A stretch of DNA of 64,000 nucleotides. Origin: a virus. Taxonomy: Duplodnaviria > Caudoviricetes. The notes below the pieces were generated by a model, which made no database searches, was not told the DNA's origin, and was given only the letters and a program-made list of their open reading frames with translations. Below are positions 1 through 22,487 of the stretch, piece by piece. Within the stretch, counting starts at the first letter, position 1; every line of letters starts with the position of its first letter. A program made the translations under genes and the position numbers. The stretch is taken from positions 30,451 through 94,450 of the IMG/VR virus record IMGVR_UViG_3300020049_013434; one strand, 5' to 3'.

Positions 1-686
1 GTGTTGCTGGTCTGCGCCTTGGCGATACGATCGAAGTCGCGCTGGTACTGATCCGCCATCTTCGTGACGCGCTTGCCCATGTCCTCGGCTTGATCGATCA
101 TTGACGGGTCGATAATGGTTCGCTTGCGACCGAGCGATTGCAGAGATTCGTCGAGGACGCCCAGGCGCGCCCGCAAATTCTCGAAGGTCTGCGCAGCCTG
201 TTGATTGCCGGACATAGTGGACAGACGGGCGTCTGCCTCCCTGAGCACATCTTCGATCACGCGCCGAGAAGCGCCGACCTGTTCCTTTAGCTGACTCTTT
301 AGGGCGCTTATATCAGGACCCGCGGGAACGATTGGCTTGGCAGCCAGTGCGGCATTTTGCGCCTGTAGATCCTTGAGCTCCTGGCGGAGCTCCTTGACTT
401 CCTGCGTGGTCGTATTGAGCGCTTCAGCCGAAGAGACCGCCATCTTGTTAATGGCAGCCTGTGCGGTGTTGCTCTCCTTCTGAATGCCGTCAGCCAAGCC
501 GGCGCCACCCAGTGACTTTTTGATTCGCTCAAGTGTAGCGCCAACGTCAGAGCCCGCCTTCTTGAGCGTAGGCGCCATCTCGGCAAACTCGCGCAGAATC
601 TCATTGACGCGCTTCATGTGGTCCTCGAAGGACGAGAACCCAAGAACTTCTACATCTACGCCTAAGCGATCAACTGATTCTGTCAT
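1..686 (-). CDS. Tail tape measure protein, N-terminal part (runs off the window)
   Basis: Open minus frame from ATG 686 (MTESVDRLGVDVEVLGFSSFEDHMKRVNEILREF...) to the window edge. Ala/Gln/Lys-rich and helical; lies after tail chaperones; ATGA overlap with the upstream gene. Not in the ORF track because it has no stop in the window. Confidence 0.75.
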   Translation of the reverse strand, partial: MTESVDRLGVDVEVLGFSSFEDHMKRVNEILREFAEMAPTLKKAGSDVGATLERIKKSLGGAGLADGIQKESNTAQAAINKMAVSSAEALNTTTQEVKELRQELKDLQAQNAALAAKPIVPAGPDISALKSQLKEQVGASRRVIEDVLREADARLSTMSGNQQAAQTFENLRARLGVLDESLQSLGRKRTIIDPSMIDQAEDMGKRVTKMADQYQRDFDRIAKAQTSN

Positions 687-1141
687 GCTTTCATGGCCGC
701 TTTCACGTTTTCCAAGAACGTATCCAGGCGATTCTGGACGATTGATTTACCAAACTCACGCGCCACAATGCCTCTAGCGGCGGCTCTTGCCGGTTCGTAG
801 TCGAAGTAGGCAACTGCCCGATTGCCGCCAGAGGCATTAGAATACAGCGATCCTGGACGCGTTCTTGAAACAAAGGAGCGATGCATTACCGCATAGCGTC
901 GATCGGTGCCACGGTCGACGTACATAAAAATATCGGCATTCACACCGCGTGCATATATGTTAAAGCGGAGATCTTGATCAGAGTTATTCTCGACCGAGAA
1001 GTCCACCTTTGTATTCCAGTTGTCGACAACCTTCTCGTAATCTTCGCACACAAGGTCGGCTGTCTGTTGGGCGACACGACGCAGACTGGTGACAATCTCG
1101 TCTGGATTACGCCGCTTTCCCTGTTTGTACGTTACCTTCAT
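683..1141 (-). CDS. Tail completion / HK97 gp10-like neck protein
   Basis: 152 aa with YVDRGT motif and C-terminal GIVAREF, resembling gp10-like proteins; tail module position. Confidence 0.5.
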   Translation of the reverse strand: MKVTYKQGKRRNPDEIVTSLRRVAQQTADLVCEDYEKVVDNWNTKVDFSVENNSDQDLRFNIYARGVNADIFMYVDRGTDRRYAVMHRSFVSRTRPGSLYSNASGGNRAVAYFDYEPARAAARGIVAREFGKSIVQNRLDTFLENVKAAMKA

Positions 1142-1595
1142 TGGCTAGCTCGACCAATCTGCCACGACGACCGCGTGGCGCCGGCTTGTCCTCAGCCTTG
1201 CTCTCAACGCCCATGGCGACGGTGCTTACCGCGGCAATAAATTCCTCATTGGTCATGCCGACATAGCGAATATAGACCGCTTCCAGATACTCCTGGAAGA
1301 TCAGGTCGTCAGCAACGACGCCGTACAAATCGGAATGGCGTCGAATCCGTCCAGGAATTGGATCAGGCGGCAGGGGGCTCATGAGCCGGCAAGAGCACTC
1401 GACAATATACATAAGATAGCGCTCGTTGCCACGCCAGACTTCCATGAGGTCGCGCGGGTTCACGTCCTTGCCCGTCGACAAGCGTTCTGCCTTCTCAGGG
1501 TCAAAGATACTGGCCGCACGTAGCATATCCGACTCCGCCATGCGGGTTACTTCAACAACAACACCATTGTCTAGTTCAATCGTGGATGGGTTCAT
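1107..1595 (-). CDS. Putative tail assembly chaperone (paralog of 1592-2344)
   Basis: Lies between tube genes and tape measure; shares IELxxGxxVE start and C-x-L-xx-PLP motif with the next ORF. Confidence 0.5.
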   Translation of the reverse strand: MNPSTIELDNGVVVEVTRMAESDMLRAASIFDPEKAERLSTGKDVNPRDLMEVWRGNERYLMYIVECSCRLMSPLPPDPIPGRIRRHSDLYGVVADDLIFQEYLEAVYIRYVGMTNEEFIAAVSTVAMGVESKAEDKPAPRGRRGRLVELANEGNVQTGKAA

Positions 1596-2344
1596 TTTGG
1601 GCTCTTCCTATTACTATTCTTCTCGGCCTCAGCCTGTTGGGCATCATTGCGGTGCATGTCAATCAACTTGCGCACCCGATTAATCCCAATGACCTCGACC
1701 ATAAACCGTTTCTCGTACTTGCCCTGGCGCCAGTCAGCCCAGGACATGCCTGAATCGATACATGACTCGTACTCGTCTATCGGCGACACGATCTGATAGG
1801 TGCCAATTGTGATAGCCTGGCTACCAATGCCCGTGTCGATACTGTAGCGAGTATGGGCTTCGTCAATGTATTCGCCGTTGCGTAAGATACCGAGCAGCCT
1901 GACTGCCTCGCGAATCTCCGCCTCTGTAATTACCGTGGCTGCGATAATGCGTTCCATATCGACGGAGCCACGCATGCACTCGACCGCCAAGTAGAGCAGC
2001 GCCAAGTCGTCCGGGTCGTCGAGATTCAGGTTGTCGATCAGATCCTTAGCGATACCGTAACGCTTTACCCGCCGAAACCAGGAGTCGTCCTGCGGCAACG
2101 GCGTTAGTAACTTGCATCCTAACCGAACCAGCTCAACGCCGACCATCTCCGATCGTTGCATGGCGACGCGGCGTTGAGCTGCGATATAGTCCGGGTGCAT
2201 GGGATTGTCCTCCCAGCGGTCCTGCGATTTGATGTACGACTTGGGCACTGGTGGGTCGGGTATGCGGGCTTGCGCACGGCGCAGCTCAAGTGCCGACACT
2301 GTGCGGGTTTCAACCTGCGCACCAGACCCAAGTTCGATAATCAT
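1592..2344 (-). CDS. Putative tail assembly chaperone
   Basis: Immediately downstream of the tube-like genes; 250 aa, helical. Confidence 0.5.
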   Translation of the reverse strand: MIIELGSGAQVETRTVSALELRRAQARIPDPPVPKSYIKSQDRWEDNPMHPDYIAAQRRVAMQRSEMVGVELVRLGCKLLTPLPQDDSWFRRVKRYGIAKDLIDNLNLDDPDDLALLYLAVECMRGSVDMERIIAATVITEAEIREAVRLLGILRNGEYIDEAHTRYSIDTGIGSQAITIGTYQIVSPIDEYESCIDSGMSWADWRQGKYEKRFMVEVIGINRVRKLIDMHRNDAQQAEAEKNSNRKSPK

Positions 2345-2346
2345 GC

Positions 2347-3864
2347 TTAGCCCGCTGTCCCCAAGACAACCAGAGGGGTATCAGGGTCCGGGTCAACGCC
2401 TTCGACGACGCCGTATGCCCACACGAGGTTCGGGTTCTCCTCACAGCAAGCAACCCCGTTGAATGTGCCCATGTTGCGCATGGCAAGCTGGGAAACGGCG
2501 TTGTCGGTATTGGGCTCGTAGACCCAGGTCACACCACCGTCAATGCTGCGGTACAGAATGCTGCCGGCAATCATCCACATGACATGTTGATTGCTCATGC
2601 ACAGACCGGCGACAATCGGCGGCGTGCTGGCGTTGTAGCCAGGGAAGCAAACGCGAGTCCAGGTCAATCCGGCATCCGCCGTCATCCACAGGTTGCCCGC
2701 AGCCCCACCAACGATCCAGTTGTTGGCAGACTTTACGATCACCGTGTTCAGGTTGGCGTTGACCGGCACCGAAGCCGACTGCGCCAGGCTGCTGCCGAGG
2801 CGGTAGACATAGACAGCGCCGGCATTGCCGACCGCCACTACCACACCGTCGTTGGCGTGCATGCCGTTGAAGGTCACGGTGCCAGCGTCGTCGAGCAGGG
2901 TGATACCGCAGCTCGGATCATTGCGATCTGCCGTGCGATACAGTGCGCCGTCGCTATTGAGAATCAGGGTGGCGCCAATGTTGGCTCCCACGCCGTCCGC
3001 AATCGCCTTGACGGTGAAGTTGTAATCGCTCGTGCGCCACAGCCAGGCCGTGCTAGCGGCAATCGCGCCAGAAGCAATCAGGTCGATATGCGCCCGGCTG
3101 ATCGAGGTCACGACACCATCGGCGTAGACAACGGTAACACTATTACCAGAGCAGATAATGTCGAAGGCGCCGACGCCACGATTGGCGGCCGGAATCTGAA
3201 TGTCGGTCCAGGTCGCGCCGTTGTCCGTGCTGTATTCGATATAGTGGTCGTCAGTAAAGACATACACTTTGTCGCAGCCACGGGAGGGCGGGCACATGTC
3301 GCTGGCGCAGGTCTTGCGTCCGCAAACGGCAATGCCGACAGGCGCACCCTCTGCGGTCAAGCCAGTCTGGCGCTGGGCATAGATCAGGCGGCTCTTAATC
3401 TGGAAGAACTCGCCAATCGACACGTCAATCGTTTCGTTGACGGTGCCGCGATCAGCGCTCTGCATAGCCAACACTGGGTCAGTGCCCCAGTTGGTGACAT
3501 ACACATTACGCAAAACCCAGGCGATACTGTACTCGTTGAAGTTATCCAGGTTGGCGCAGGCGCCCCAGTGGATATGGGCGTCAACAGGACATTCGCCGTC
3601 GAACATGTCGCGGAAGAGACTGAGCTCAGTCAGACTCAGGCGACCCGTGAAGGTCGTAGTCATGCGGCCGATTTCACCGCGGAAGACCCCGATCTCCTTG
3701 TACCCTGCCCCATTGGGATTCGGGCACTCAATCTTGTTCACCTCGCCGCCATCCTGTGTCAGCCCATCGATACCCACGCAGGCGACATAGACGGCTTCAG
3801 CCGTGCCGTCGCCGGGACCGCGGGTCATCAGGAAGAGGCGAGCTCGATCGTTAGTTGCGATCAT
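2347..3864 (-). CDS. Tail tube-like domain fused to BNR/Asp-box beta-propeller (paralog 4)
   Basis: N-terminal ~155 aa shared with three neighbours; Asp-boxes STDNGATW, TADAGLTW, SIDGGVTW. Confidence 0.65.
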   Translation of the reverse strand: MIATNDRARLFLMTRGPGDGTAEAVYVACVGIDGLTQDGGEVNKIECPNPNGAGYKEIGVFRGEIGRMTTTFTGRLSLTELSLFRDMFDGECPVDAHIHWGACANLDNFNEYSIAWVLRNVYVTNWGTDPVLAMQSADRGTVNETIDVSIGEFFQIKSRLIYAQRQTGLTAEGAPVGIAVCGRKTCASDMCPPSRGCDKVYVFTDDHYIEYSTDNGATWTDIQIPAANRGVGAFDIICSGNSVTVVYADGVVTSISRAHIDLIASGAIAASTAWLWRTSDYNFTVKAIADGVGANIGATLILNSDGALYRTADRNDPSCGITLLDDAGTVTFNGMHANDGVVVAVGNAGAVYVYRLGSSLAQSASVPVNANLNTVIVKSANNWIVGGAAGNLWMTADAGLTWTRVCFPGYNASTPPIVAGLCMSNQHVMWMIAGSILYRSIDGGVTWVYEPNTDNAVSQLAMRNMGTFNGVACCEENPNLVWAYGVVEGVDPDPDTPLVVLGTAG

Positions 3865-3876
3865 TGAAAATGCTCC

Positions 3877-5433
3877 TTAACAAATTTGGCTAGACACAAG
3901 AATTCCCTTGTCGGTATCGGCAACAAGCTCGCATGCGTGCTGGCAGCCACCCTCCGCGCAGTCTTCCGGTGTCGTCAACGTAACTCGCCCAGTCGCTACG
4001 AAAACATTTGGATCGTGCGAACAAACCGTCAGGCCGTGCCAAAAGCCCAGGTCTGGATTCACACCCCAAATATAATCGTCAACCAGGTCCCAAGTCGCTC
4101 CGCCGTCAATGGTTCGATACACTCGACAAGGGCTGCGCGTCAAGTAGTACCCAACATTTTTGGTCGAGAACTTTATGTCAACAATGGGAGACGCGCTATT
4201 GACCACGGTGCGCCAGGTTCGCCCGGCGTCCGTCGTGCAGTGCAGCCCGCCCCCACAGGTTGCAACAAACCATTCGTCGGAATTGCGCATAACCACAGCG
4301 CTGATCTGGCAGGTATCGTCAACACCAGCCAGCGTCAAGCAGTCAATGGTAGAGATAACGCCATTCCGGTAAGCGCTGATTGAGCCAAGCACGGAGCCGA
4401 GCAAGAAGTTGTTCTCGTCGACCATGCTCATGAACTCCCAGAAGCCGGACACGCCCAGCGGCTCCTGCGTAATCGACAGCGAGTCCGTATTGACTGCGGT
4501 CAGCGTGCCGCTATCGTCAAGCACCCACAGCTTGCCGCCAGCGATATGTACGGCGTTAATCTGGGTGCTAATCTCAATGCGCCGATACTCGCTTAGCTCC
4601 CCGTCGTCAAAGTCGCTCAGGGGAATACGGTAGATCGCGCCGGCATGGTCGTCCGCCTCGTTGCCAATGACAAAGAGCGCCTTGCCACTACAGGCAATAT
4701 GGAACGAGTGCAGCGGCGCGCTCAGCATGTTGAAGGTCGGTATAGTGAAGGCGTAGTCGCGCCACACAATGCCACCGTCTGTCGAGCGCATAATGGTAAT
4801 GTTGTTTCCGTTGAAATCCGGATCGCCATTGAAGCGCCAGGCGTAGAATGTACTGCAAGGCACCAGGCAGTCCGTGGCGCAGCCTTCTGGGCATGTGGTG
4901 ACCGCAGCCACCACGCCCTGCTGCGTCTGCCCTCTCGCCACTTCCAAGAGCTTCACGCAGAAGACTTCGTAGATATTAGCCGCCGCCAGATTCACCGTTT
5001 CCATGACCGGTGCGGTTTCTCCGCTATTGAGTGCGCCCAGGTTATCGACGTTGTAGCCGCTGAAGGTAGCGTCCTCGATAATGATTGCTGACTCGTAGCT
5101 GCCGAAGTCACTCAGATCAACACAGGTCCCGAAGTGGACCTGCACGTCGATTGGCGTCTTGCGGCGTGAAAGCCGTTGTAGTACAGAGCGAGCGCCAAGG
5201 ATCTTGTAGCCGGCCAGGCTCGTGTTCCAGGGTGACTCGTCGCCGCGGTAGGAATCCACTTGCTCAAACTCGCCGCCAATGTCGCCAGGGCAGTAGATTG
5301 GGGTGACTTCGCCGAAGCTCTTATCGACGCCACCCATTTTCATACAGTTGTAATACACATATTCCCGGCCGCAACCGGCGCCCTTCTCAGCGATAAAGAC
5401 ACGGGCGTTGCTATTGAGCAGAATGTTATCCAT
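3877..5433 (-). CDS. Tail tube-like domain fused to BNR/Asp-box beta-propeller (paralog 3)
   Basis: Asp-boxes STDGGIVW, TTDAGRTW, TIDGGATW; conserved N-domain (QVHFGTC, LGALNSGETAPVMET). Confidence 0.65.
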   Translation of the reverse strand: MDNILLNSNARVFIAEKGAGCGREYVYYNCMKMGGVDKSFGEVTPIYCPGDIGGEFEQVDSYRGDESPWNTSLAGYKILGARSVLQRLSRRKTPIDVQVHFGTCVDLSDFGSYESAIIIEDATFSGYNVDNLGALNSGETAPVMETVNLAAANIYEVFCVKLLEVARGQTQQGVVAAVTTCPEGCATDCLVPCSTFYAWRFNGDPDFNGNNITIMRSTDGGIVWRDYAFTIPTFNMLSAPLHSFHIACSGKALFVIGNEADDHAGAIYRIPLSDFDDGELSEYRRIEISTQINAVHIAGGKLWVLDDSGTLTAVNTDSLSITQEPLGVSGFWEFMSMVDENNFLLGSVLGSISAYRNGVISTIDCLTLAGVDDTCQISAVVMRNSDEWFVATCGGGLHCTTDAGRTWRTVVNSASPIVDIKFSTKNVGYYLTRSPCRVYRTIDGGATWDLVDDYIWGVNPDLGFWHGLTVCSHDPNVFVATGRVTLTTPEDCAEGGCQHACELVADTDKGILVSSQIC

Positions 5434-6983
5434 TAGATCCCCGTCAAAATAAAGCCGTCGATACCGACCAGAGTCATTTCAAGCGCCAGTCCATGTAGGG
5501 TTGAGTTCGCTGCCGTGTAGCCAACCGCAACAAAGGTGGTCGGCTCCTCCGGGCAGACGGCTAAGTCATGCATGACTGAGTACTGGGTCAGGCTCGCTGC
5601 GTCATCGTTCATTTGCTCCCACTCGGCGCCACCGTCTGACGTGACCCAGATCTCGCCAGGATTGCGCAGCGTGATATAGCCACGATTTTTGGCTGGGAAG
5701 CGAATGCTGCGCACCGATCCTTCGCCGCGGGAGAACGAGCGAGCCCAGGTCAACCCGGCGTTGCGCGTGCAGTAGACGTCGCCCTCGTCCGTGCCGACCA
5801 TCCAGTCAGTCAACGTCTTCATGGCGACGGCAGTAATATCGATTGACAGCGTGCCGTCCGGCGTAACAACAGGCACCTGTCGCAGTCCCTCGCCAGCCTT
5901 GCGGTGAGCCAAGGTGCCCGTCGCACCACCGACAATCAGGTTGTCGCGGTCAACGCCGTCAATGTCGTTCCACTGATTCGAGAACAGCACGTCGTCTTCA
6001 ACCAGATTAACCGCCAGGTTCTGCGGGTTGAACCAGAACACCTTGCCGTTCTCCGTCGCTGCATACACGCGTCCGCCAATCTCGTGCAGTCTGGTTATGG
6101 TCACGCCGGTCGACAATAGGTTAAAAGAGACGACCGGTTCGCTATTGAGCGCCGTCACAGGAATGGACATGACTGTGCCATTACCACTGGCGTTGTTGTT
6201 CATACAAAAGACCAGGTGGTCGCCCGCGGCCGCCATCCAGAACGAATTAATCAGCTCGCCGGAGTTCGGAAAGCCGCCTGGCAGCTCATGGCGGGTCCAG
6301 GTTAATCCACCGTCTACGCTCGCCAATATATATAGGTGATCATAGGCGTCGTTGTTGGTGTAGCTATAGGGCAACTGCAGGGCGTAGAAGTTCTTACCAA
6401 ACTCGCGCCCGGTTTCCCAGTTGTAGTAGCTGTGAGCAACGCCCACGATTTGCCCACCAGCCGGCGCCACATTGCTGCCGACGCGCGCCAGCTCAACGGC
6501 GAATAGCTCGTAGACCCGTGCGGCCGTGATATTAATGGTCTCCATAATGGGCGCTGTCTCACCGCTATTCAGGGCGCCCAGGCTATCGGCGGAGTAGTTG
6601 TTGACATCCACGTCCTCAAAGACCAGGGCTGTCTCGTACTGCCCAAAGTCGCTCAGATTGGCACAGCTCCCAAAGTGAAGCTGCAGATCAAAGATTTGGC
6701 GGTTGCTATACAGGCGGTGCAACAGTGACGGCGTGTTTGCCGGCTTGTAACCCATGATTGAACTCGACCATGGCTCTTGCTGCTCGCGAATCACCGCTAT
6801 CTGCCTGTTTCGTCCGGGTCGACTACGGTCGGGCAGGTAAATCGGCGACAGGTCAGCCCCGGCTTGCTCCAGGTTGCCCATCTTGCCGCAGGCATAATAC
6901 GCATATTCATCGCCGCACCCGGCGCCTTCCTCGGCGACGAATATGCGGGAGTTGCTATTGAGCAGGAATGTGTTCTCAGCCAT
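5433..6983 (-). CDS. Tail tube-like domain fused to BNR/Asp-box beta-propeller (paralog 2)
   Basis: Asp-boxes SVDGGLTW, TRNAGLTW, TSDGGAEW; conserved N-domain. Confidence 0.65.
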   Translation of the reverse strand: MAENTFLLNSNSRIFVAEEGAGCGDEYAYYACGKMGNLEQAGADLSPIYLPDRSRPGRNRQIAVIREQQEPWSSSIMGYKPANTPSLLHRLYSNRQIFDLQLHFGSCANLSDFGQYETALVFEDVDVNNYSADSLGALNSGETAPIMETINITAARVYELFAVELARVGSNVAPAGGQIVGVAHSYYNWETGREFGKNFYALQLPYSYTNNDAYDHLYILASVDGGLTWTRHELPGGFPNSGELINSFWMAAAGDHLVFCMNNNASGNGTVMSIPVTALNSEPVVSFNLLSTGVTITRLHEIGGRVYAATENGKVFWFNPQNLAVNLVEDDVLFSNQWNDIDGVDRDNLIVGGATGTLAHRKAGEGLRQVPVVTPDGTLSIDITAVAMKTLTDWMVGTDEGDVYCTRNAGLTWARSFSRGEGSVRSIRFPAKNRGYITLRNPGEIWVTSDGGAEWEQMNDDAASLTQYSVMHDLAVCPEEPTTFVAVGYTAANSTLHGLALEMTLVGIDGFILTGI

Positions 6984-8512
6984 TAGTCCCCAATAATCAC
7001 AAAGCCTGACAGGTCACCATAGGACACCGCAGTTTCAGACGCGTAGTAAGCGCTCTCGTCGTCTGCCGTATGTCCAACCGCCACAAAGATCGTTGGGTCA
7101 AGTGGGCAGGCGACAAAGTCCTTCATGAGTGAGTAGGTCGATAAGCCCGTCGTCACTGCCTCGATCTGGGTCCACTGCGATCCGCCGTCCGAAGTCGTGT
7201 AGACGTTGGCAGGGCTGTGTAGCACGATATAGCCCCGGCTGTTGGTCGGGAAAAGCACACGACGCACAACGGAACCCTGGCTGGTGAAAATCAGACTCCA
7301 GGTAACACCAGCGTCACTCGTGCAGTAGACGGCGCCATTCTCCGTCCCAATGACCCAGTCGTCCCGCCCCTTCATAGCGACAGCCGTAATGTCGTCGGCA
7401 ATGGGCGACCCGTCGATATTGATCGGCACCGTGCGCAGACTCGTACCATTGCGCCGTACTGCTAACGTCCCTGAGTCGCCAACGACTAGGAAGTTGTCGT
7501 AGTCTAGTCCGTCAAAGTCATTCCAGCGATTGGTGTACAGTGAGCCGTCCTCAATATAGTAGACCGCCATGGTTGACGGCCGCACCCAAAAGACCTTGCC
7601 GTTTTCAGTAACGCCGTACACGCGAGAGCGCATACGCTTCAGGCGGGTAACCATAGCGCCCAGCGTAACCGTGTTGTTATACTCGGTTGTTGCAGCGTCG
7701 AGCCTTGTGACCGGAATGCCATACAGGACACCTGTGGCGTCGCCAGACAGAATGATATGATTATTGGCGACGGCAATGTTGAGCGAGTCGCTGTACTCTT
7801 CCGGTATAGCAGCCGGTGCGTCGGTTTCGTGGCGGGTCCAGCTTAGCCCACCGTCGTTGCTGGCAAGGATATAAAAGAACGATTCATCCTCGACGAAAGT
7901 CAGCGGCAATTGTAGAGCATAGAAGTTCTGGCAAGCCTCAGCGTCGCCGTTGACACAGTCGTAGGGGCTATAGGCGACGGCCGGCACCTGACCACCCAGG
8001 GCAACCTGATTGCCGGCTGCGTGAACCAACCCAACCGTAAACAGTTCGTAGACGTTGGCGGCGGTTATATTGACTGTCTCCATGACGGGCGCAGTTTCGC
8101 TACTATTGAGCGCCCCCAGTCCGTCAATGTTGTAGCTGGAAATCTCGACGTTCTCGAAGACGAGCGCCTGCTCAAAGTCGGAGAAGTTGCTGAGATCGTT
8201 GCATACGCCAAAGTGAACCTGTAGGTCGAACTTGCAGCGTTCGCGCGCCAGCCGTGCCAGGACAGAAGGCATGCCGGCCGGCTTGTAGCCGGTGATTGTG
8301 CTGGTCCAGGCACCGTCGCTTGCCTTCACGACCTGCACCTGGCGGAAGCGCCCAGCCTTGGACGGATCGGGGCAGTAGATCGGCGTTGTTTCGCCGGCGC
8401 TACGGTCGAGACCGCCCATCTTCATACAGGTGTAGTAGTTATAGTGCTTGCCGCAGCCAGAGCCTGCCGGTGCAATAAAAATACGAGCATGGCTCGTTAG
8501 CATATATGCCAT
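6983..8512 (-). CDS. Tail tube-like domain fused to BNR/Asp-box beta-propeller (paralog 1)
   Basis: Asp-boxes SNDGGLSW, TSDAGVTW, TSDGGSQW; conserved N-domain. Confidence 0.65.
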   Translation of the reverse strand: MAYMLTSHARIFIAPAGSGCGKHYNYYTCMKMGGLDRSAGETTPIYCPDPSKAGRFRQVQVVKASDGAWTSTITGYKPAGMPSVLARLARERCKFDLQVHFGVCNDLSNFSDFEQALVFENVEISSYNIDGLGALNSSETAPVMETVNITAANVYELFTVGLVHAAGNQVALGGQVPAVAYSPYDCVNGDAEACQNFYALQLPLTFVEDESFFYILASNDGGLSWTRHETDAPAAIPEEYSDSLNIAVANNHIILSGDATGVLYGIPVTRLDAATTEYNNTVTLGAMVTRLKRMRSRVYGVTENGKVFWVRPSTMAVYYIEDGSLYTNRWNDFDGLDYDNFLVVGDSGTLAVRRNGTSLRTVPINIDGSPIADDITAVAMKGRDDWVIGTENGAVYCTSDAGVTWSLIFTSQGSVVRRVLFPTNSRGYIVLHSPANVYTTSDGGSQWTQIEAVTTGLSTYSLMKDFVACPLDPTIFVAVGHTADDESAYYASETAVSYGDLSGFVIIGD

Positions 8513-9894
8513 TAAAACGCCCCCGTCGATACCATGCCGCCTGGCATCATATTCTTAATCTCAAGCGCCTTGCGGAAGGCGTCTACCTCACCCCGTCGTG
8601 TGCCGAATGGATTATCTGCCAGTTTCAACGTCAGGAAGTAAGACCCCTCGTTGCGGTTCGAGTAGTTCATGGTCGCCTGCAGCTCAGCAAAGCGGTCGGT
8701 GGTGCGGTCGCAGGTGCACTGGCAGACCGCCTTTGGTAGCCGTGCCGCCGCCAGCAATGCCACAATCTGCTCAGTCTCACTGCTATCAAAGCAGGTGCTG
8801 TCGCAACCGAAATCGCTGGTATAGCCGTGCCAGTAGTAAAGCTTAACAAAGTCCGGGTCGCGACTACAGGCTTGGCAATTGCCGTCCGTACACCACTGCT
8901 CTTCCTCTGCGTTCCATGTGCCACGCACTGCCTGCACAGCGCCTTTGACGCCGTAAGTATTGCCGACGACGCAGCCAGGGCAATAGCTCAACTGGCAAAT
9001 GTCACAGGAGCCGCAGGAGCAACCTGGGTTGCCACGCCAGCCAAACTGGGCTGCGGCTACAGTGCGGTCAAAATAGCGGCGCACCACGACCAGTTCCTCC
9101 GGGTAAGTCGCCGGCGAGAGTAGGTCGATAATCGGCGACATGTTGTTGTTCAGACAGATTCCGCAGTCAGCCGGCTCCTCGTAAAGCTCTGGACGAATGG
9201 CTACCCAAGGATCAATCTCAATACTGGCTATGCCGTCCGCAATCTCAATGCGCGGCGAGTGAATCTTGTAGGCTCGGTCGCAAACGTGACCGACGTGATA
9301 CACTTCAATCTCGCACTCAAGCACACAGGACTCGACCTCGACTTCAAGCAAAATGCGCTTCGGGCAGTCCACATTATTCTTGCTCGTATACAGGTCGCCG
9401 TTGCGATCGTAGATTTGCACCGGTACTGTGCCGAGCTCGGCGACCGACTGGCGACCCCAGGCTAAGACCGGCTCGTCATTGATCACGTAGAGCCCATTAG
9501 CCCTTCTTGTCTCAGCCCGTACTCGGCTACTGCTAGACGATGGCAGCTCGCCAAGATAAATGCTGCCGTAGGCGTAGTCACGGGCTGGTCCACAGCCACC
9601 GTTATAGGGCAGGATAACGCACTTCTCTTGCGGGTAGATCGGTATGCCCCAGAAGGCTGCCAAGTCACGCTCGGCTTCGGCGATCGCATTCGCCAGGTCA
9701 TCGCGCGTAACGACAGACGAACCGGCTTGGTGTGGACCTTGATACCAAAACTCATTGCAGCCAGTCATGCAGCCATAGTGGCAGACGGGCTCGAAGGTGG
9801 CGCCGTTGAAGGCTACTGGGTTGAGTCCAAAGATCTCGGCAAACCTATCGAGATCTAATACTTTTGACTTTTTCGAGAAACGACTCCAGGCCAT
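8512..9894 (-). CDS. Cys-rich head-tail adaptor/neck protein
   Basis: Start moved to ATG 9894 (GGAGG RBS upstream). LANAIAEAERDLAAFWG helix and C-terminal NPFGTRRG are adaptor-like; lies upstream of tube genes. Confidence 0.5.
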   Translation of the reverse strand: MAWSRFSKKSKVLDLDRFAEIFGLNPVAFNGATFEPVCHYGCMTGCNEFWYQGPHQAGSSVVTRDDLANAIAEAERDLAAFWGIPIYPQEKCVILPYNGGCGPARDYAYGSIYLGELPSSSSSRVRAETRRANGLYVINDEPVLAWGRQSVAELGTVPVQIYDRNGDLYTSKNNVDCPKRILLEVEVESCVLECEIEVYHVGHVCDRAYKIHSPRIEIADGIASIEIDPWVAIRPELYEEPADCGICLNNNMSPIIDLLSPATYPEELVVVRRYFDRTVAAAQFGWRGNPGCSCGSCDICQLSYCPGCVVGNTYGVKGAVQAVRGTWNAEEEQWCTDGNCQACSRDPDFVKLYYWHGYTSDFGCDSTCFDSSETEQIVALLAAARLPKAVCQCTCDRTTDRFAELQATMNYSNRNEGSYFLTLKLADNPFGTRRGEVDAFRKALEIKNMMPGGMVSTGAF

Positions 9895-10261
9895 CCAGGA
9901 CCTCCACCAAATTGAGCATGAACGTGTACACGCCATAAGCCGCAAAGAACTCGGCAACGGTATAGAGAGAGAAGCTGCGCGCCGTCAGCAGGACGGCAAT
10001 AATATTCGTCCAGATACCCGTGCAGTACATGCACAGGAGCATGAGACCAACCTCGGTCGTCGCCACATATTTAGGTATCTCTTCGGGCGGCGTATCAGTC
10101 ATCGCAATGTAGCGATTCAGTTGCTCGCCCGTTGCCGTATCGCTAGGCAAAATGCCGGCTAGCTCGCGAATCCGTTCAAGCAGGCGATAGGGTCCGCGCT
10201 CGTTAACCAGCAAATGCGCAATGGCATAAGCGACTAGGGCTCGTAGTAAGATCATCGCCAT
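9845..10261 (-). CDS. DUF1360-like membrane protein
   Basis: TM segments with ERGPYRLLERIR and LLCMYCTGIW (CxxC-W) signature; sits in the lysis cluster. Confidence 0.6.
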   Translation of the reverse strand: MAMILLRALVAYAIAHLLVNERGPYRLLERIRELAGILPSDTATGEQLNRYIAMTDTPPEEIPKYVATTEVGLMLLCMYCTGIWTNIIAVLLTARSFSLYTVAEFFAAYGVYTFMLNLVEVLDGLESFLEKVKSIRSR

Positions 10262-10896
10262 AACAATGCCTGCCTTTGCACTCTGTCTACCCTGGACATC
10301 CATGACACGCCGTAGCGCGCATAGTTTGACAGGGTGCGGTAAAAATAGCGGCGCCATTCATTGTAGGCGTCGAAGGTGCCGGTCACGCTCGACGCCAGTA
10401 GCGCCGTGCCAACACCGGCATTGACCGCAAAGTCGAACACGGTCAGGTTGAGCGGAAAAGGCAGCATGGCTGCCCCACTTGGCACCCAATAGCTATCGTG
10501 ATAAATCTTGCGCATGCGCTCCATGGTGAGCTGAGAGACACGCACGTAGGGGTGCGCCTTTTGGCTAATGCCCCACAGTGTGACGCCGCCCGGATCATGT
10601 TGGTCAGTCGATAGCCCACCCTCTTCGCGCAGAACAAAGCGCAGGCAGCGACCAAAATCACCTTCGACAAGTCGGTCAATTAGAATGGTCCGATTCGCCG
10701 ATTGCTCGGCTATCCAGCCGGTGCGCCCGTTGCGGACCTGCCACCAGATTAATCCAGCGCGCTCAATGGGACCGCCTGTAATAACGAGCTTCGTGTCGAA
10801 GTCAAGCGTCTCAAGCCATGTACCGTTCGGCTCGCGTCGGAGTTTAGTCGGCGTGACCACGACCACAGAATCACCTACCAAAAGTTCTGTCTTCAT
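10252..10896 (-). CDS. Endolysin: SH3-like domain + glycoside hydrolase family 108
   Basis: EGG...DPGGVTLWGIS and FDFAVNAG GH108 motifs; N-terminal WWQV..GRTGWIAE SH3b-like motif. Confidence 0.85.
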   Translation of the reverse strand: MKTELLVGDSVVVVTPTKLRREPNGTWLETLDFDTKLVITGGPIERAGLIWWQVRNGRTGWIAEQSANRTILIDRLVEGDFGRCLRFVLREEGGLSTDQHDPGGVTLWGISQKAHPYVRVSQLTMERMRKIYHDSYWVPSGAAMLPFPLNLTVFDFAVNAGVGTALLASSVTGTFDAYNEWRRYFYRTLSNYARYGVSWMSRVDRVQRQALLWR

Positions 10897-10907
10897 AGAA
10901 TCTTCCC

Positions 10908-10950
10908 CAATGGTCGCCGATCATTAATCGGACGTGATCGGCGACCATTG
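10908..10950. terminator. 16-bp perfect inverted repeat between holin and endolysin
   Basis: CAATGGTCGCCGATCA-N11-TGATCGGCGACCATTG. Confidence 0.5.
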
Positions 10951-10956
10951 GCAATG

Positions 10957-19669: not shown

Positions 19670-19891
19670 TCGGAGCAGATTGACTGAGGACGTGTTAATG
19701 TGACCGTCGATAAGCAGCGACACAACCGCTGAGGTCCGATTAGGCGTTCTGGTCTTCTCCATGATCCTCGCGACGTATTCCTGCGCTGTGCGGGCGGTTA
19801 TGGTCAACTCCCTGGCAATCTGTACGTCGCTGTAGCCGGCAGCGACTAGCAGGGAGACTTCCATCTCCCGTTTACTCAAGAGATTCGACAT
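19652..19891 (-). CDS. LuxR/GerE-type HTH regulator, candidate late activator
   Basis: LSKREMEV..LVAAGYSDVQIARELTITARTAQEYVARIMEK..NRT. Confidence 0.9.
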   Translation of the reverse strand: MSNLLSKREMEVSLLVAAGYSDVQIARELTITARTAQEYVARIMEKTRTPNRTSAVVSLLIDGHINTSSVNLLRKNPEF

Positions 19892-22487
19892 GGGCAGCTC
19901 CGTTCACTGAAAACGTAACCGGCTGGATATTCTTGCGCGCATACTGATCGTCGAGAAAGTCTTGTGCTTCCCGCAGAATCTTCTTCTCTTCCTCGGTCTG
20001 GGCAGCGTTAGGCTGGTTGGTGGAGCCGACGATATCCGGCGTCGCCTGCGCCATCTGCTCCTCCATTTTCGCCTCTTGCTCTTCGTGGTGCTTGACCAGA
20101 TAGGCGTACTGGGCTTCGTTAATGTCGCCGGCATCAAGCATGGTCTGGAAGGCGACTACGGCATTAATCTGCTTGGACTCAAGGCGAATCTGCAGCTCTT
20201 CTGCGCGCAGCTTGCGTAGCTCGCCCTTAATGCGATCCTGCTCGTCGTCCTGCTGATCAAAGGAGGGTAGACAGGACATGGGCACCCACTTCTCGCCCAG
20301 CTCCGTCGTTAGGCTCTCTACCCACACGCCAGGCGTCTTGCGCATGGTCTTAAGGTGACTCACTTCGGCGTCTGCCCTGGTGGCGCCACGCACGGTCGCC
20401 GGCCACAACTCACGTGGGTCAAAGCCGTAGCCCATGGCGACAATGTTAATGCCAATGTTGACGCTGGTCTCCTCGTCGTACCCCTCCGGTAGACGCTTGA
20501 GAGGAATGCGTTCAATCGAGGCAGCCCGAATCAGCTCTGGTGCGCCACGGATACCAATGTAGGCAAGCTTGGAGTGGCGGGTTAAGCCCTCGGCGTCCGC
20601 TTTGAGATCAGCCTTGGCGAAGGCGTCAGCTAGGTCGTCAACCGAGAAGCCACGCCCAAACACGATTTCGCTGACCGGTCGTGCGCCGAGCCATTCCTCT
20701 TTTAGTACGGAGATGTCGGTTAGGTGGAGGGCGTTGGAGATACAGCGGCTTACCGCCGAGACGCCAACGCCAAACATGTTGAAGCGCGGGCTTGGCATTT
20801 GCGAGGTAAAAAGAACACGCGTGCGGTGCAGCTTGTAGCGGTGATACTTGCCCTTCTTGTCGCGCGTCTCAAAGATCACGGGATACTCTGGATCGCCGGA
20901 TCGAGTACAGTTGTGTACGATCATGTTGGCGGCAACAAAGTTGTGATTATCCATGACATCAATACAGAATGATGCGGCTTGACCGCCGTTGTACACCTGT
21001 TCTACCGAGATCACCCTATCGTAGTAAATCGGTGACTTCTCTGGTTCCCACAGGGAAGGGTCGTAGGCTGGCGCATTGTCCGGGAGTTTGTAGCGTAGGC
21101 ATGGCGGAATATATGGACCAACCATAGCGGCAAGAGCGGCCATTCCGTCAGCGCTAATGCGAATCTGCGGATACGTCCTCCCGGTACGTTTGTCATGACT
21201 GTACACCGTCTTGCACCGAATCCCAGCGGAACACATGATATCGCACAGCCAGTCTACATCCTCTGGATCGAACGACATTGCTGCAATTTCTCCGCCTGGC
21301 CGTCCCCAGTTGTTCTGCTTCTTTATCATTCTACCGTCATCGGCGTACCAGGCAGCCAGCATTCTTGGGCCAAAGTGTGCTTCTACAAGCTGCCGATTGA
21401 CGATTTTCTTTCCGTCTGGATACCACATTTCCCGCCAATCTCCCAGGCTGGGAGTATTGAGCGACTGGGTTCCAACGCACGTTTTATGTAGTCTTCGCGA
21501 GAAGGTGAAGTCGCGAAGATAGCGCTCCTTAATCGCCATCCACTCTTCCTGAACTCTTCCATGCATAAATTGCAAGCACGACTTTCCTGAGTTGTACTGA
21601 CGACCAATGAAGGCGTCGCCAAGAACCGTACCAACCATGAGCTCTGCCTGCGACTTTGTAAAATCAGGAAATGGGGTCGCGATTCTGCTTTCGGTGGTTA
21701 AATCCTCTGCTCTAACCCATCCGCTTGTTGTTAACATTTCATGATCGTTGGTAACTGTGATGCCCTCCTGTCTACCATTCCCTCTGTACAGTGAATGGGC
21801 AAGATTTATTCTCAGCCACTTTCTGTCGCCAAGGCGCGACTCATGCCAGCCAACAACCGGCTTTGGCTCAAGGTTTCCGTCCGGGCCGAGCGACATTACG
21901 CTAACCTTCATCTGTCCGCGCACGATATCAATAATTGGAATTACTGACCCGTCTTCGAGCATCACTCTGGTTGTGCGATCGAGACACATTTGACTATCAA
22001 GGTGACGCAGTCCAAGCCCGTACAGGTAGGTCTTTGTGCCTGGCACCAGAGTTGGCTCAATCGGTCCAGAGGGGTCGCCGCCACCGATGATCTCGGCAAA
22101 TGCGCCGTTGTCCTGCGTCTGCCAGTCGATAATGAAGGGCAGCATTTCGCGGGCAAAGGCGAGGCGAAGGAGAGCGCTCGACCAATAAGCTAAGTCACGA
22201 TTACGCTTGTTCTCTTTATCGCGCGGCATGACGCCAACGGGAATCGAGAAGAGGCGGGACGAGGTCACGTTAGTGGTGGAGAGAAGAATGTCGCTGCGCA
22301 ACAACGCCTCCCACAGAAATTTGTCGCGCTGCCTGCTCCACCACGGGTAGACGCGCTCTGAAATAAAGATTGGGTTGACGCGGATGCCGGTAAGTTGCGG
22401 TTCTTCGATCGTCGGCTGCGGGGCAAGCCGCGACGTTGTGTCCACGGCAGCGACTAGGTCGCGCGTGTCCTCGTACTGAGACGCCAT
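19872..22487 (-). CDS. Portal protein with LAGLIDADG intein
   Basis: DNGAFAEII and GVGVSAV portal-like motifs; position upstream of protease/capsid; intein in frame. Confidence 0.8.
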   Translation of the reverse strand: MASQYEDTRDLVAAVDTTSRLAPQPTIEEPQLTGIRVNPIFISERVYPWWSRQRDKFLWEALLRSDILLSTTNVTSSRLFSIPVGVMPRDKENKRNRDLAYWSSALLRLAFAREMLPFIIDWQTQDNGAFAEIIGGGDPSGPIEPTLVPGTKTYLYGLGLRHLDSQMCLDRTTRVMLEDGSVIPIIDIVRGQMKVSVMSLGPDGNLEPKPVVGWHESRLGDRKWLRINLAHSLYRGNGRQEGITVTNDHEMLTTSGWVRAEDLTTESRIATPFPDFTKSQAELMVGTVLGDAFIGRQYNSGKSCLQFMHGRVQEEWMAIKERYLRDFTFSRRLHKTCVGTQSLNTPSLGDWREMWYPDGKKIVNRQLVEAHFGPRMLAAWYADDGRMIKKQNNWGRPGGEIAAMSFDPEDVDWLCDIMCSAGIRCKTVYSHDKRTGRTYPQIRISADGMAALAAMVGPYIPPCLRYKLPDNAPAYDPSLWEPEKSPIYYDRVISVEQVYNGGQAASFCIDVMDNHNFVAANMIVHNCTRSGDPEYPVIFETRDKKGKYHRYKLHRTRVLFTSQMPSPRFNMFGVGVSAVSRCISNALHLTDISVLKEEWLGARPVSEIVFGRGFSVDDLADAFAKADLKADAEGLTRHSKLAYIGIRGAPELIRAASIERIPLKRLPEGYDEETSVNIGINIVAMGYGFDPRELWPATVRGATRADAEVSHLKTMRKTPGVWVESLTTELGEKWVPMSCLPSFDQQDDEQDRIKGELRKLRAEELQIRLESKQINAVVAFQTMLDAGDINEAQYAYLVKHHEEQEAKMEEQMAQATPDIVGSTNQPNAAQTEEEKKILREAQDFLDDQYARKNIQPVTFSVNGAAHVESLE
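20910..21986 (-). mobile_element. Intein with LAGLIDADG homing endonuclease (359 aa)
   Basis: Starts CLDRTTRV, block B TNDH, GTVLGDA and AWYADDG endonuclease motifs, ends HNFVAANMIVHN followed by Cys. Confidence 0.9.

Follow-up and report, generated by a model that had tools for sequence, protein, structure and literature searches.

In long-tailed phages, the tail tube is regarded as a homopolymer, built from a single protein that at times has a small immunoglobulin (Ig)-like add-on, and single add-on domains on tube proteins are known from lambda, T5, JBD30 and YSD1. We know of no description of a siphophage tube made from several gene products. Here we report on a 64,000-nucleotide stretch of the genome of an uncultured, tailed wastewater phage (the window; bases 30451-94450 of the 94,450-bp IMG/VR virus genome IMGVR_UViG_3300020049_013434, which has direct terminal repeats). 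In it, four adjacent genes, par1 to par4 (window 2347-8512, minus strand), fill the slot of a tail tube gene. An earlier note, made from the letters of the window alone, had read these genes as tube paralogs that are each fused to an Asp-box beta-propeller.

The organization of the par proteins recalls lambda gpV, T5 pb6 and the JBD30 tube protein, which likewise combine a tube-fold N-terminal domain with a C-terminal surface add-on (Ig-like) and whose genes precede those of the chaperones and the tape measure. Here, in contrast, the add-on is a propeller that, at ~340 aa, exceeds an Ig domain several times in size, the genes number four and not one, and the paralogs have no sequence-level membership in the Pfam families of the lambda gpV, T5 pb6 and JBD30 tube proteins.

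More than one tube protein per phage has been encountered in two settings. In SPP1, two forms of the tube protein, gp17.1 and gp17.1*, are reported to co-assemble in one tail, with and without an outer domain or with outer domains that differ (cited in PMC8718954). These forms come from one gene by frameshift and have an identical tube domain, whereas the par genes are four anciently diverged genes. Actinobacteriophages of clusters AU, AM, BI, DJ and CC carry two annotated major tail protein genes, conserved across the clusters (bioRxiv 10.1101/2020.01.10.891226). The two copies are non-adjacent (genes 18 and 23 in Giantsbane) and no propeller is reported for them, unlike the four adjacent, propeller-bearing genes described here, and tblastn against GenBank phages found no sequence relation between the two groups.

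Contractile and secretion machines, for their part, use several paralogs of the same fold per machine, as we propose here. Examples are the Photorhabdus virulence cassette (PVC; Pvc1/Pvc5/Pvc7), the antifeeding prophage (AFP; Afp1/5/7), T4 (gp19/gp48/gp54/gp3) and the Hcp paralog sets of type VI secretion systems (T6SS), among which Hcp2-Hcp3 of Bacteroides fragilis is a heterohexamer. Those paralogs are small, undecorated and enclosed in a sheath, whereas the par proteins have a large outer domain and their locus holds Dit and tape measure genes, with no sheath gene found. Our literature search turned up neither a tube family that bears propellers nor a siphophage with three to four tube genes that lie in tandem and are conserved separately.

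Four tube-propeller paralogs in tandem

DNA near-identical to the source genome occurs in wastewater metagenomes of ten studies. The four-gene array is not an assembly artefact, since DNA contigs of an independent wastewater study cover the whole of it colinearly, with differences of a few per cent. All four genes lie on the minus strand, so that par4 (6983..8512, 509 aa) is the first gene of the array, followed by par3 (5433..6983, 516 aa), par2 (3877..5433, 518 aa) and par1 (2347..3864, 505 aa). Their products can be aligned end to end, with a similarity to par4 that ranges from 46% identity for par3 (E 2e-151) through 36% for par2 (E 4e-92) to 25% for par1, the most divergent (E 8e-28). This is far above chance, and the four genes are paralogs. 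The N-terminal motifs RIF(I/V)A, (I/L/V)QxHFGxC and ALNSxETAP(V/I)MET, on which the earlier note had based the relationship, are found in par2 to par4, and par1 carries degenerate versions of them (RLFLM, AHIHWGAC and AMQSADRGTVNET). Its count of three Asp-boxes per protein was exact: the pattern [ST]xDxGxxW occurs three times in each paralog, at equivalent positions (around residues 212-222, 395-406 and 440-448).

The N-terminal ~165 residues are predicted to adopt the beta-sandwich of the tail-tube/Hcp superfamily, an assignment that is well supported by structural modelling. A model of par4 residues 1-175 (predicted local distance difference test score, pLDDT, 77) is a beta-sandwich with strands across residues 9-158 and one helix at 84-91; together with the structure searches, it displays the sandwich, single helix and long hairpin that define this superfamily. 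Contractile and T6SS tube proteins are its top structural matches. VIA-align placed it closest to the PVC tube 6j0b_a (Z 11.5, 130 residues aligned), with further matches at Z 10.9, 10.8 (Hcp5), 10.1 (SPP1 gp17.1), 9.9 (80alpha), 9.5 (9vnd_B) and 9.1 (YSD1 major tail protein), and nearly all of the 42 chains at Z of at least 8 were tube or Hcp proteins. Foldseek, a search independent of VIA-align, gave E values of 2e-6 to 8e-4 against PVC/AFP tubes, 80alpha and lambda gpV. The structural neighbours of the ESM Atlas's own model of the protein were likewise members of tail-tube Pfam families, namely Phi812_tail_tube, Phage_T4_gp19, Phage_tail_3, Phage_tube_2 and Phage_tail_2. The comparison with the lambda gpV and SPP1 gp17 folds that the earlier note had called for thus came out in favor of a tube fold.

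The C-terminal ~340 residues probably form a seven-bladed, Ycf48-like Asp-box propeller. The Pfam families PSII_BNR, BNR and Sortilin-Vps10 score 19-28 bits on the paralogs, below their gathering cut-offs of 27-33, and a profile of the four proteins retrieved BNR propellers and Ycf48 from the PDB with E values of 1.7e-11 to 2e-9. A full-length model of par4, built from a 40-sequence alignment (pLDDT 92.3, predicted template modelling score 0.90), has ~25-26 strands beyond residue 175, consistent with seven blades, and the solved structures that best match this part are those of Ycf48 (TM score 0.68-0.71, normalised by target). Profile search, model and structural match all agree with the propeller that had been read from the Asp-boxes. 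The C-terminal part has its fold and Asp-box motifs in common with the single-domain propellers Ycf48 and HCF136, from which it differs in its sub-threshold Pfam scores, in having only three readable Asp-boxes and in its fusion to a tube domain. The likeness implies no functional link to photosystem assembly.

The junction between the two domains has a feature of its own. A cluster of four cysteines is present in par1 (residues 181-197, window ~3274-3324), in par2 (residues 181-193) and in the consensus of the single-copy clade among the relatives described below; par4 retains two of the cysteines and par3 none. The cluster may be a metal site or a disulfide staple that was lost in the youngest paralogs.

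The position of the array is that of a tube gene. Downstream, on the same strand, come a 250-aa gene (1592..2344), two small genes of 162 and 152 aa, the tape measure gene, a gene for a 950-aa Dit (phrog_33) and a minor tail protein gene (phrog_538). The window holds the N-terminal part of the tape measure gene (3..686, minus strand), a 2568-aa gene that runs beyond the window (G000:C1:23430-31136) and matches phrog_167, phrog_9959 and phrog_1686; its orthologs in the relatives L018 and L019 match Pfam TMP_3. A tube gene directly upstream of chaperone and tape measure genes is the arrangement found here and in relatives, and in single-copy relatives the family member stands immediately before a chaperone pair and a PHROGs-supported tape measure. 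The 250-aa gene, which lies between the tube and tape measure genes, probably encodes a tail assembly chaperone, as judged from sequence comparison. Its homologs are split over two overlapping frames in L008 (11537-12317) and L010 (11506-12289), in a +1 relation and not the classic -1; in L008, a 190-aa frame aligns to the N-terminal part of the 250-aa protein and an overlapping 222-aa frame to its C-terminal part. This two-frame equivalence and the position of the gene point to a chaperone and not a tube protein. The gene is a single frame here and in long-tailed relatives and is split in the short-tailed single-copy relatives.

The earlier note had placed the array between a neck gene and the chaperone and tape measure genes. 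The downstream half of this statement stands, while the label "neck" rests on a weak language-model lead: the 481-aa gene upstream (8512..9957, minus strand), which directly precedes the tube gene or genes in most relatives examined, is possibly a head-completion or connector protein according to a weak match in the ESM Atlas. No other gene competes for the tube slot. A hidden Markov model (HMM) of the N-domain matched none of the other open reading frames (ORFs) of the 94-kb genome at E<=1, and no ORF scanned across the virion-module arm matched a tube or sheath family, in keeping with the view that the slot is filled with no canonical tube gene elsewhere.

Lineages, copy number and the make-up of the shaft

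A profile search of 1.84 billion cluster representatives showed that the fusion is common in metagenomes: among the best 150 clusters at 50% identity, ~130 were end-to-end matches (440-560 aa, profile positions ~4 to 490). A search for shorter, stand-alone homologs of the N-domain found none. The family is absent from PHROGs; no match came from 50,697 GenBank phages in tblastn searches with par4, par1 or the L009 member as query, nor from blastn with the array; and two scans of 185,579 prokaryote genomes revealed no prophage copies. Among viral predicted structures, the best match was a single UniProt entry of 497 aa, whose alignment spans its entire length. The tube-propeller family, found in metagenomes only, and its stepwise expansion to four conserved paralogs in one lineage are new.

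The paralog count in related phages, a check that the earlier note had suggested, varies by HMM from one copy (L008, L009 and L010) through two (L007) and three (L012/L013, L018 and L019) to four (L011, in which the last copy is cut by the contig end). Tape measures are 553 and 653 aa long in single-copy phages vs 2489-2681 aa in three- and four-copy phages. Intact orthologs in the same gene order are found in L011, L012/L013, L018 and L019, and the copies are intact in every genome seen, which indicates that each is maintained by selection. Trees resolve three orthologous lineages, whose ortholog clades have Shimodaira-Hasegawa-like support of 0.98-1.0. The order of the lineages is fixed in five phages: the par3/par4-type gene comes first, then the par2-type gene, which forms its own orthologous lineage in L011, L012, L018 and L019, and then the par1-type gene. 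In the source phage and in L011, the par3/par4-type gene is duplicated; par3 and par4 are sisters (54% identity in the N-domain, 43% in the C-domain), and par3 belongs to the fastest-evolving lineage.

The par1 lineage stands apart. It belongs to an old, separate clade that includes one of the two L007 genes, and it has evolved at about half the rate of the other lineages (mean tree distance 0.57 vs 1.09-1.30), with tube domains that are 85-92% identical between orthologs vs 61-75% in the other lineages. Every multi-copy relative holds exactly one par1-type gene. Among par2 to par4, the tube domains are 48-54% identical vs 25-43% for the propellers. Signals of expression also set par1 apart. 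From the 481-aa gene through par4 and par3 to par2, each stop overlaps the next start by 1 nt, and the ribosome-binding sites are of the GGGG type; par1 follows a 12-nt spacer, has the only AAGGAG ribosome-binding site of the four and the highest GC content at third codon positions (GC3). Two metatranscriptome libraries contain small contigs that between them reach all four genes, although these may reflect DNA carry-over.

We favor a reading in which several or all paralogs are built into one tail, whose shaft would bear different propellers, and we regard the case for it as evenly balanced. In this model, the phage would be of siphovirus type and the four genes would specify its major tail (tube) proteins, all paralogs of one another. 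Their N-domains would stack as rings into a polymer that encloses the 2568-aa tape measure. With 1.5 A for each residue, a tape measure of this length would correspond to a tail of ~385 nm with several hundred tube subunits. The propellers would be rigidly attached on the exterior of the shaft, which would thereby show three or four different propeller surfaces. These would serve as adhesins, weak but multivalent, that attach to glycans or slime of the host surface. The same adhesin role has been proposed for the Ig, fibronectin type III and carbohydrate-binding module (CBM) add-ons of other tube proteins (PMC8718954, PMC11445458). That the paralogs would share one tail is inferred from their single operon, from tube domains that stay similar while the propellers diverge, and from their variable copy number; a range of one to four copies among relatives is easier to reconcile with lattice subunits that can replace one another than with a ring whose stoichiometry is fixed. 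Of the subunits, the par1 protein is probably either the most abundant or the one under the tightest constraint, being the slowest-evolving, having the best ribosome-binding site and occurring in exactly one copy per multi-copy relative. The fullest version of this model is a true heteropolymer of three to four co-polymerising paralogs in a ~385-nm tail, with par1 as core, par2 to par4 as fast-evolving adhesin variants and several hundred propellers; we hold it tentatively, at a strength that falls just short of balance. A predicted complex of two par4 N-domains and one par1 N-domain, each with its own alignment, scored 0.30 against a mark of 0.32 and counts neither way.

Several observations weigh against a mixed shaft, and a number of them would suit its main rival, a division of labor. 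One paralog, likeliest par1, would then form the bulk of the tube, and the others a few special rings, such as a terminator-like cap below the neck, a ring by Dit or rings at other defined places, an arrangement that would resemble contractile systems with tube-fold paralogs as initiators and terminators. The par1 tube domain is only ~26-28% identical to those of the other paralogs and belongs to an ancient clade, which would also suit a specialised ring. The roughly twofold slower evolution of par1, its singular ribosome-binding site and GC3, its presence as exactly one gene per multi-copy relative and the lineage order fixed across five phages all speak for separate roles. In addition, a conserved hydrophilic ORF of ~100 aa lies between the neck-like and tube genes in the single-copy relatives L008 (9697-9987) and L010 (9667-9975; 40% identity). 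It has no counterpart in the source genome or in L011, L012, L018 and L019, and no family match. Its absence from multi-copy phages leaves room for a terminator-like special role of one paralog, which could have taken over its function.

The earlier note had also suggested terminator and distal-ring roles for the paralogs, as no separate terminator gene was apparent. Indeed, none is recognised in the module, and PHROGs at E<=1 matched neither the small unassigned ORFs nor the ~100-aa ORF of the relatives; however, unassigned ORFs of 135, 163, 192 and 204 aa in the virion module could include the terminator. The distal-ring role falls away, since the recognisable Dit gene already covers that ring and no paralog is needed for it. 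Against a division of labor, moreover, the propeller is retained at its full 340 aa in all of the paralogs that would be minor components, and the recent par3/par4 duplication would demand yet another special position. On balance we consider a division of labor possible but rather unlikely.

Other points bear on whether the proteins are tube subunits at all. No Pfam or PHROG tube family matches the N-domain sequence of the four paralogs and no PHROG matches the N-domain of 40 family members, so that this is a new sequence family inside the tube-fold superfamily. Dit, hub and initiator proteins also use this fold, and some of them appear in the VIA-align list at Z 7.5-8.3. In L015 and L016, the family member precedes giant PKD proteins and not chaperone and tape measure genes. 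The proposed glycan binding, for its part, is drawn by analogy with other decorated tube proteins. The domain could therefore serve a baseplate, hub, collar or fibre anchor, the true tube being an unrecognised ORF; the 162-aa and 152-aa ORFs are unassigned. We find this very improbable: the best and most numerous structural matches are bulk tube proteins, L008 and L010 offer no candidate other than the family gene in the interval from the neck-like gene to the chaperone and tape measure genes, and no scanned ORF of the module matches a tube family.

A further possibility is that each virion or infection uses mainly one paralog, as a form of host-range bet-hedging. Propellers that diverge more than the tube domains and a DNA invertase-like gene elsewhere in the genome would fit alternative tails of this kind. 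Yet the four genes share one orientation and one operon, with coupled translation, the invertase-like gene is 14 kb away, and no promoter-like, terminator-like or inversion-type repeats stand out above chance within or around the array. We consider such alternation very improbable, and retain the mixed shaft as the favored reading.

Genes around the array

The two small genes between the 250-aa gene and the tape measure gene (683..1595, minus strand), which are kept in long-tailed relatives, encode 162 aa (1107-1595) and 152 aa (683-1141) and overlap by 35 nt. They possibly form a second chaperone pair; neither matches a family in Pfam or PHROGs. Their overlap (window 1107-1141) contains GGGAAAG at 1115-1121 on the minus strand, two codons ahead of the upstream stop. 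These are the letters of the lambda G/GT slip site, but the 152-aa frame is +1 and not -1 relative to the 162-aa frame, and a slip of the classic -1 kind would leave them unjoined. When compared with itself by BLAST, the tape measure showed no internal modules of a kind that could template tail segments.

The 481-aa gene has no Pfam, PHROG or PDB sequence match, and its homolog is not at the tube locus in L007 and L015/L016. A stretch of 77 nt in it (window 9495-9573) is exchanged for 74 other letters in contigs of two runs and constitutes a small variable cassette. We also considered whether this gene could encode a sheath and rejected it: it matches no sheath family, propellers on each tube subunit would not fit beneath a sheath, and a Dit is present. 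PDB sequence searches with the 538-aa, 481-aa, 350-aa and 192-aa neighbours gave nothing usable.

A protein with three transmembrane (TM) segments is encoded just beyond (window 9845-10896); it has a weak DUF1360 match, and its gene overlaps that of a GH108 endolysin here. In the relatives checked, it is kept immediately upstream of the neck-like and tube genes, even with no endolysin nearby, and where the neck-like gene is absent it lies directly upstream of the tube gene. It could be either a holin or a virion-assembly protein. Between a 135-aa gene and the GH108 endolysin gene, the window carries a perfect 17-bp inverted repeat with an 11-nt spacer (10907-10951). Farther along, in an 871-aa ORF (window 19872-22487, minus strand), residues 274-470 make up a LAGLIDADG homing-endonuclease segment (phrog_11023); the homolog of this ORF in L007 has 647 aa, and the ORF likely holds an intein.

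Two of the relatives' loci have peculiarities of their own. The tube-propeller gene is followed in L015 (2170-10888) and in L016 by genes for a 1563-aa PKD-repeat protein and an 834-aa beta-helix/CBM/PKD protein. In L008 (5146-8070), the virion module includes, just upstream of the tail genes, the gene for a 974-aa protein that has several glycosyltransferase domains, GtrB-like ones among them, and could glycosylate virion proteins.

Implications for tail tubes and their annotation

If the four copies co-assemble, tube lattices would tolerate mixed subunits, and the entire shaft, beyond the tip, would be a multi-specific adhesion surface. Annotation pipelines would then also gain a new tube family, whose members are now mislabelled "photosystem II assembly factor-like".

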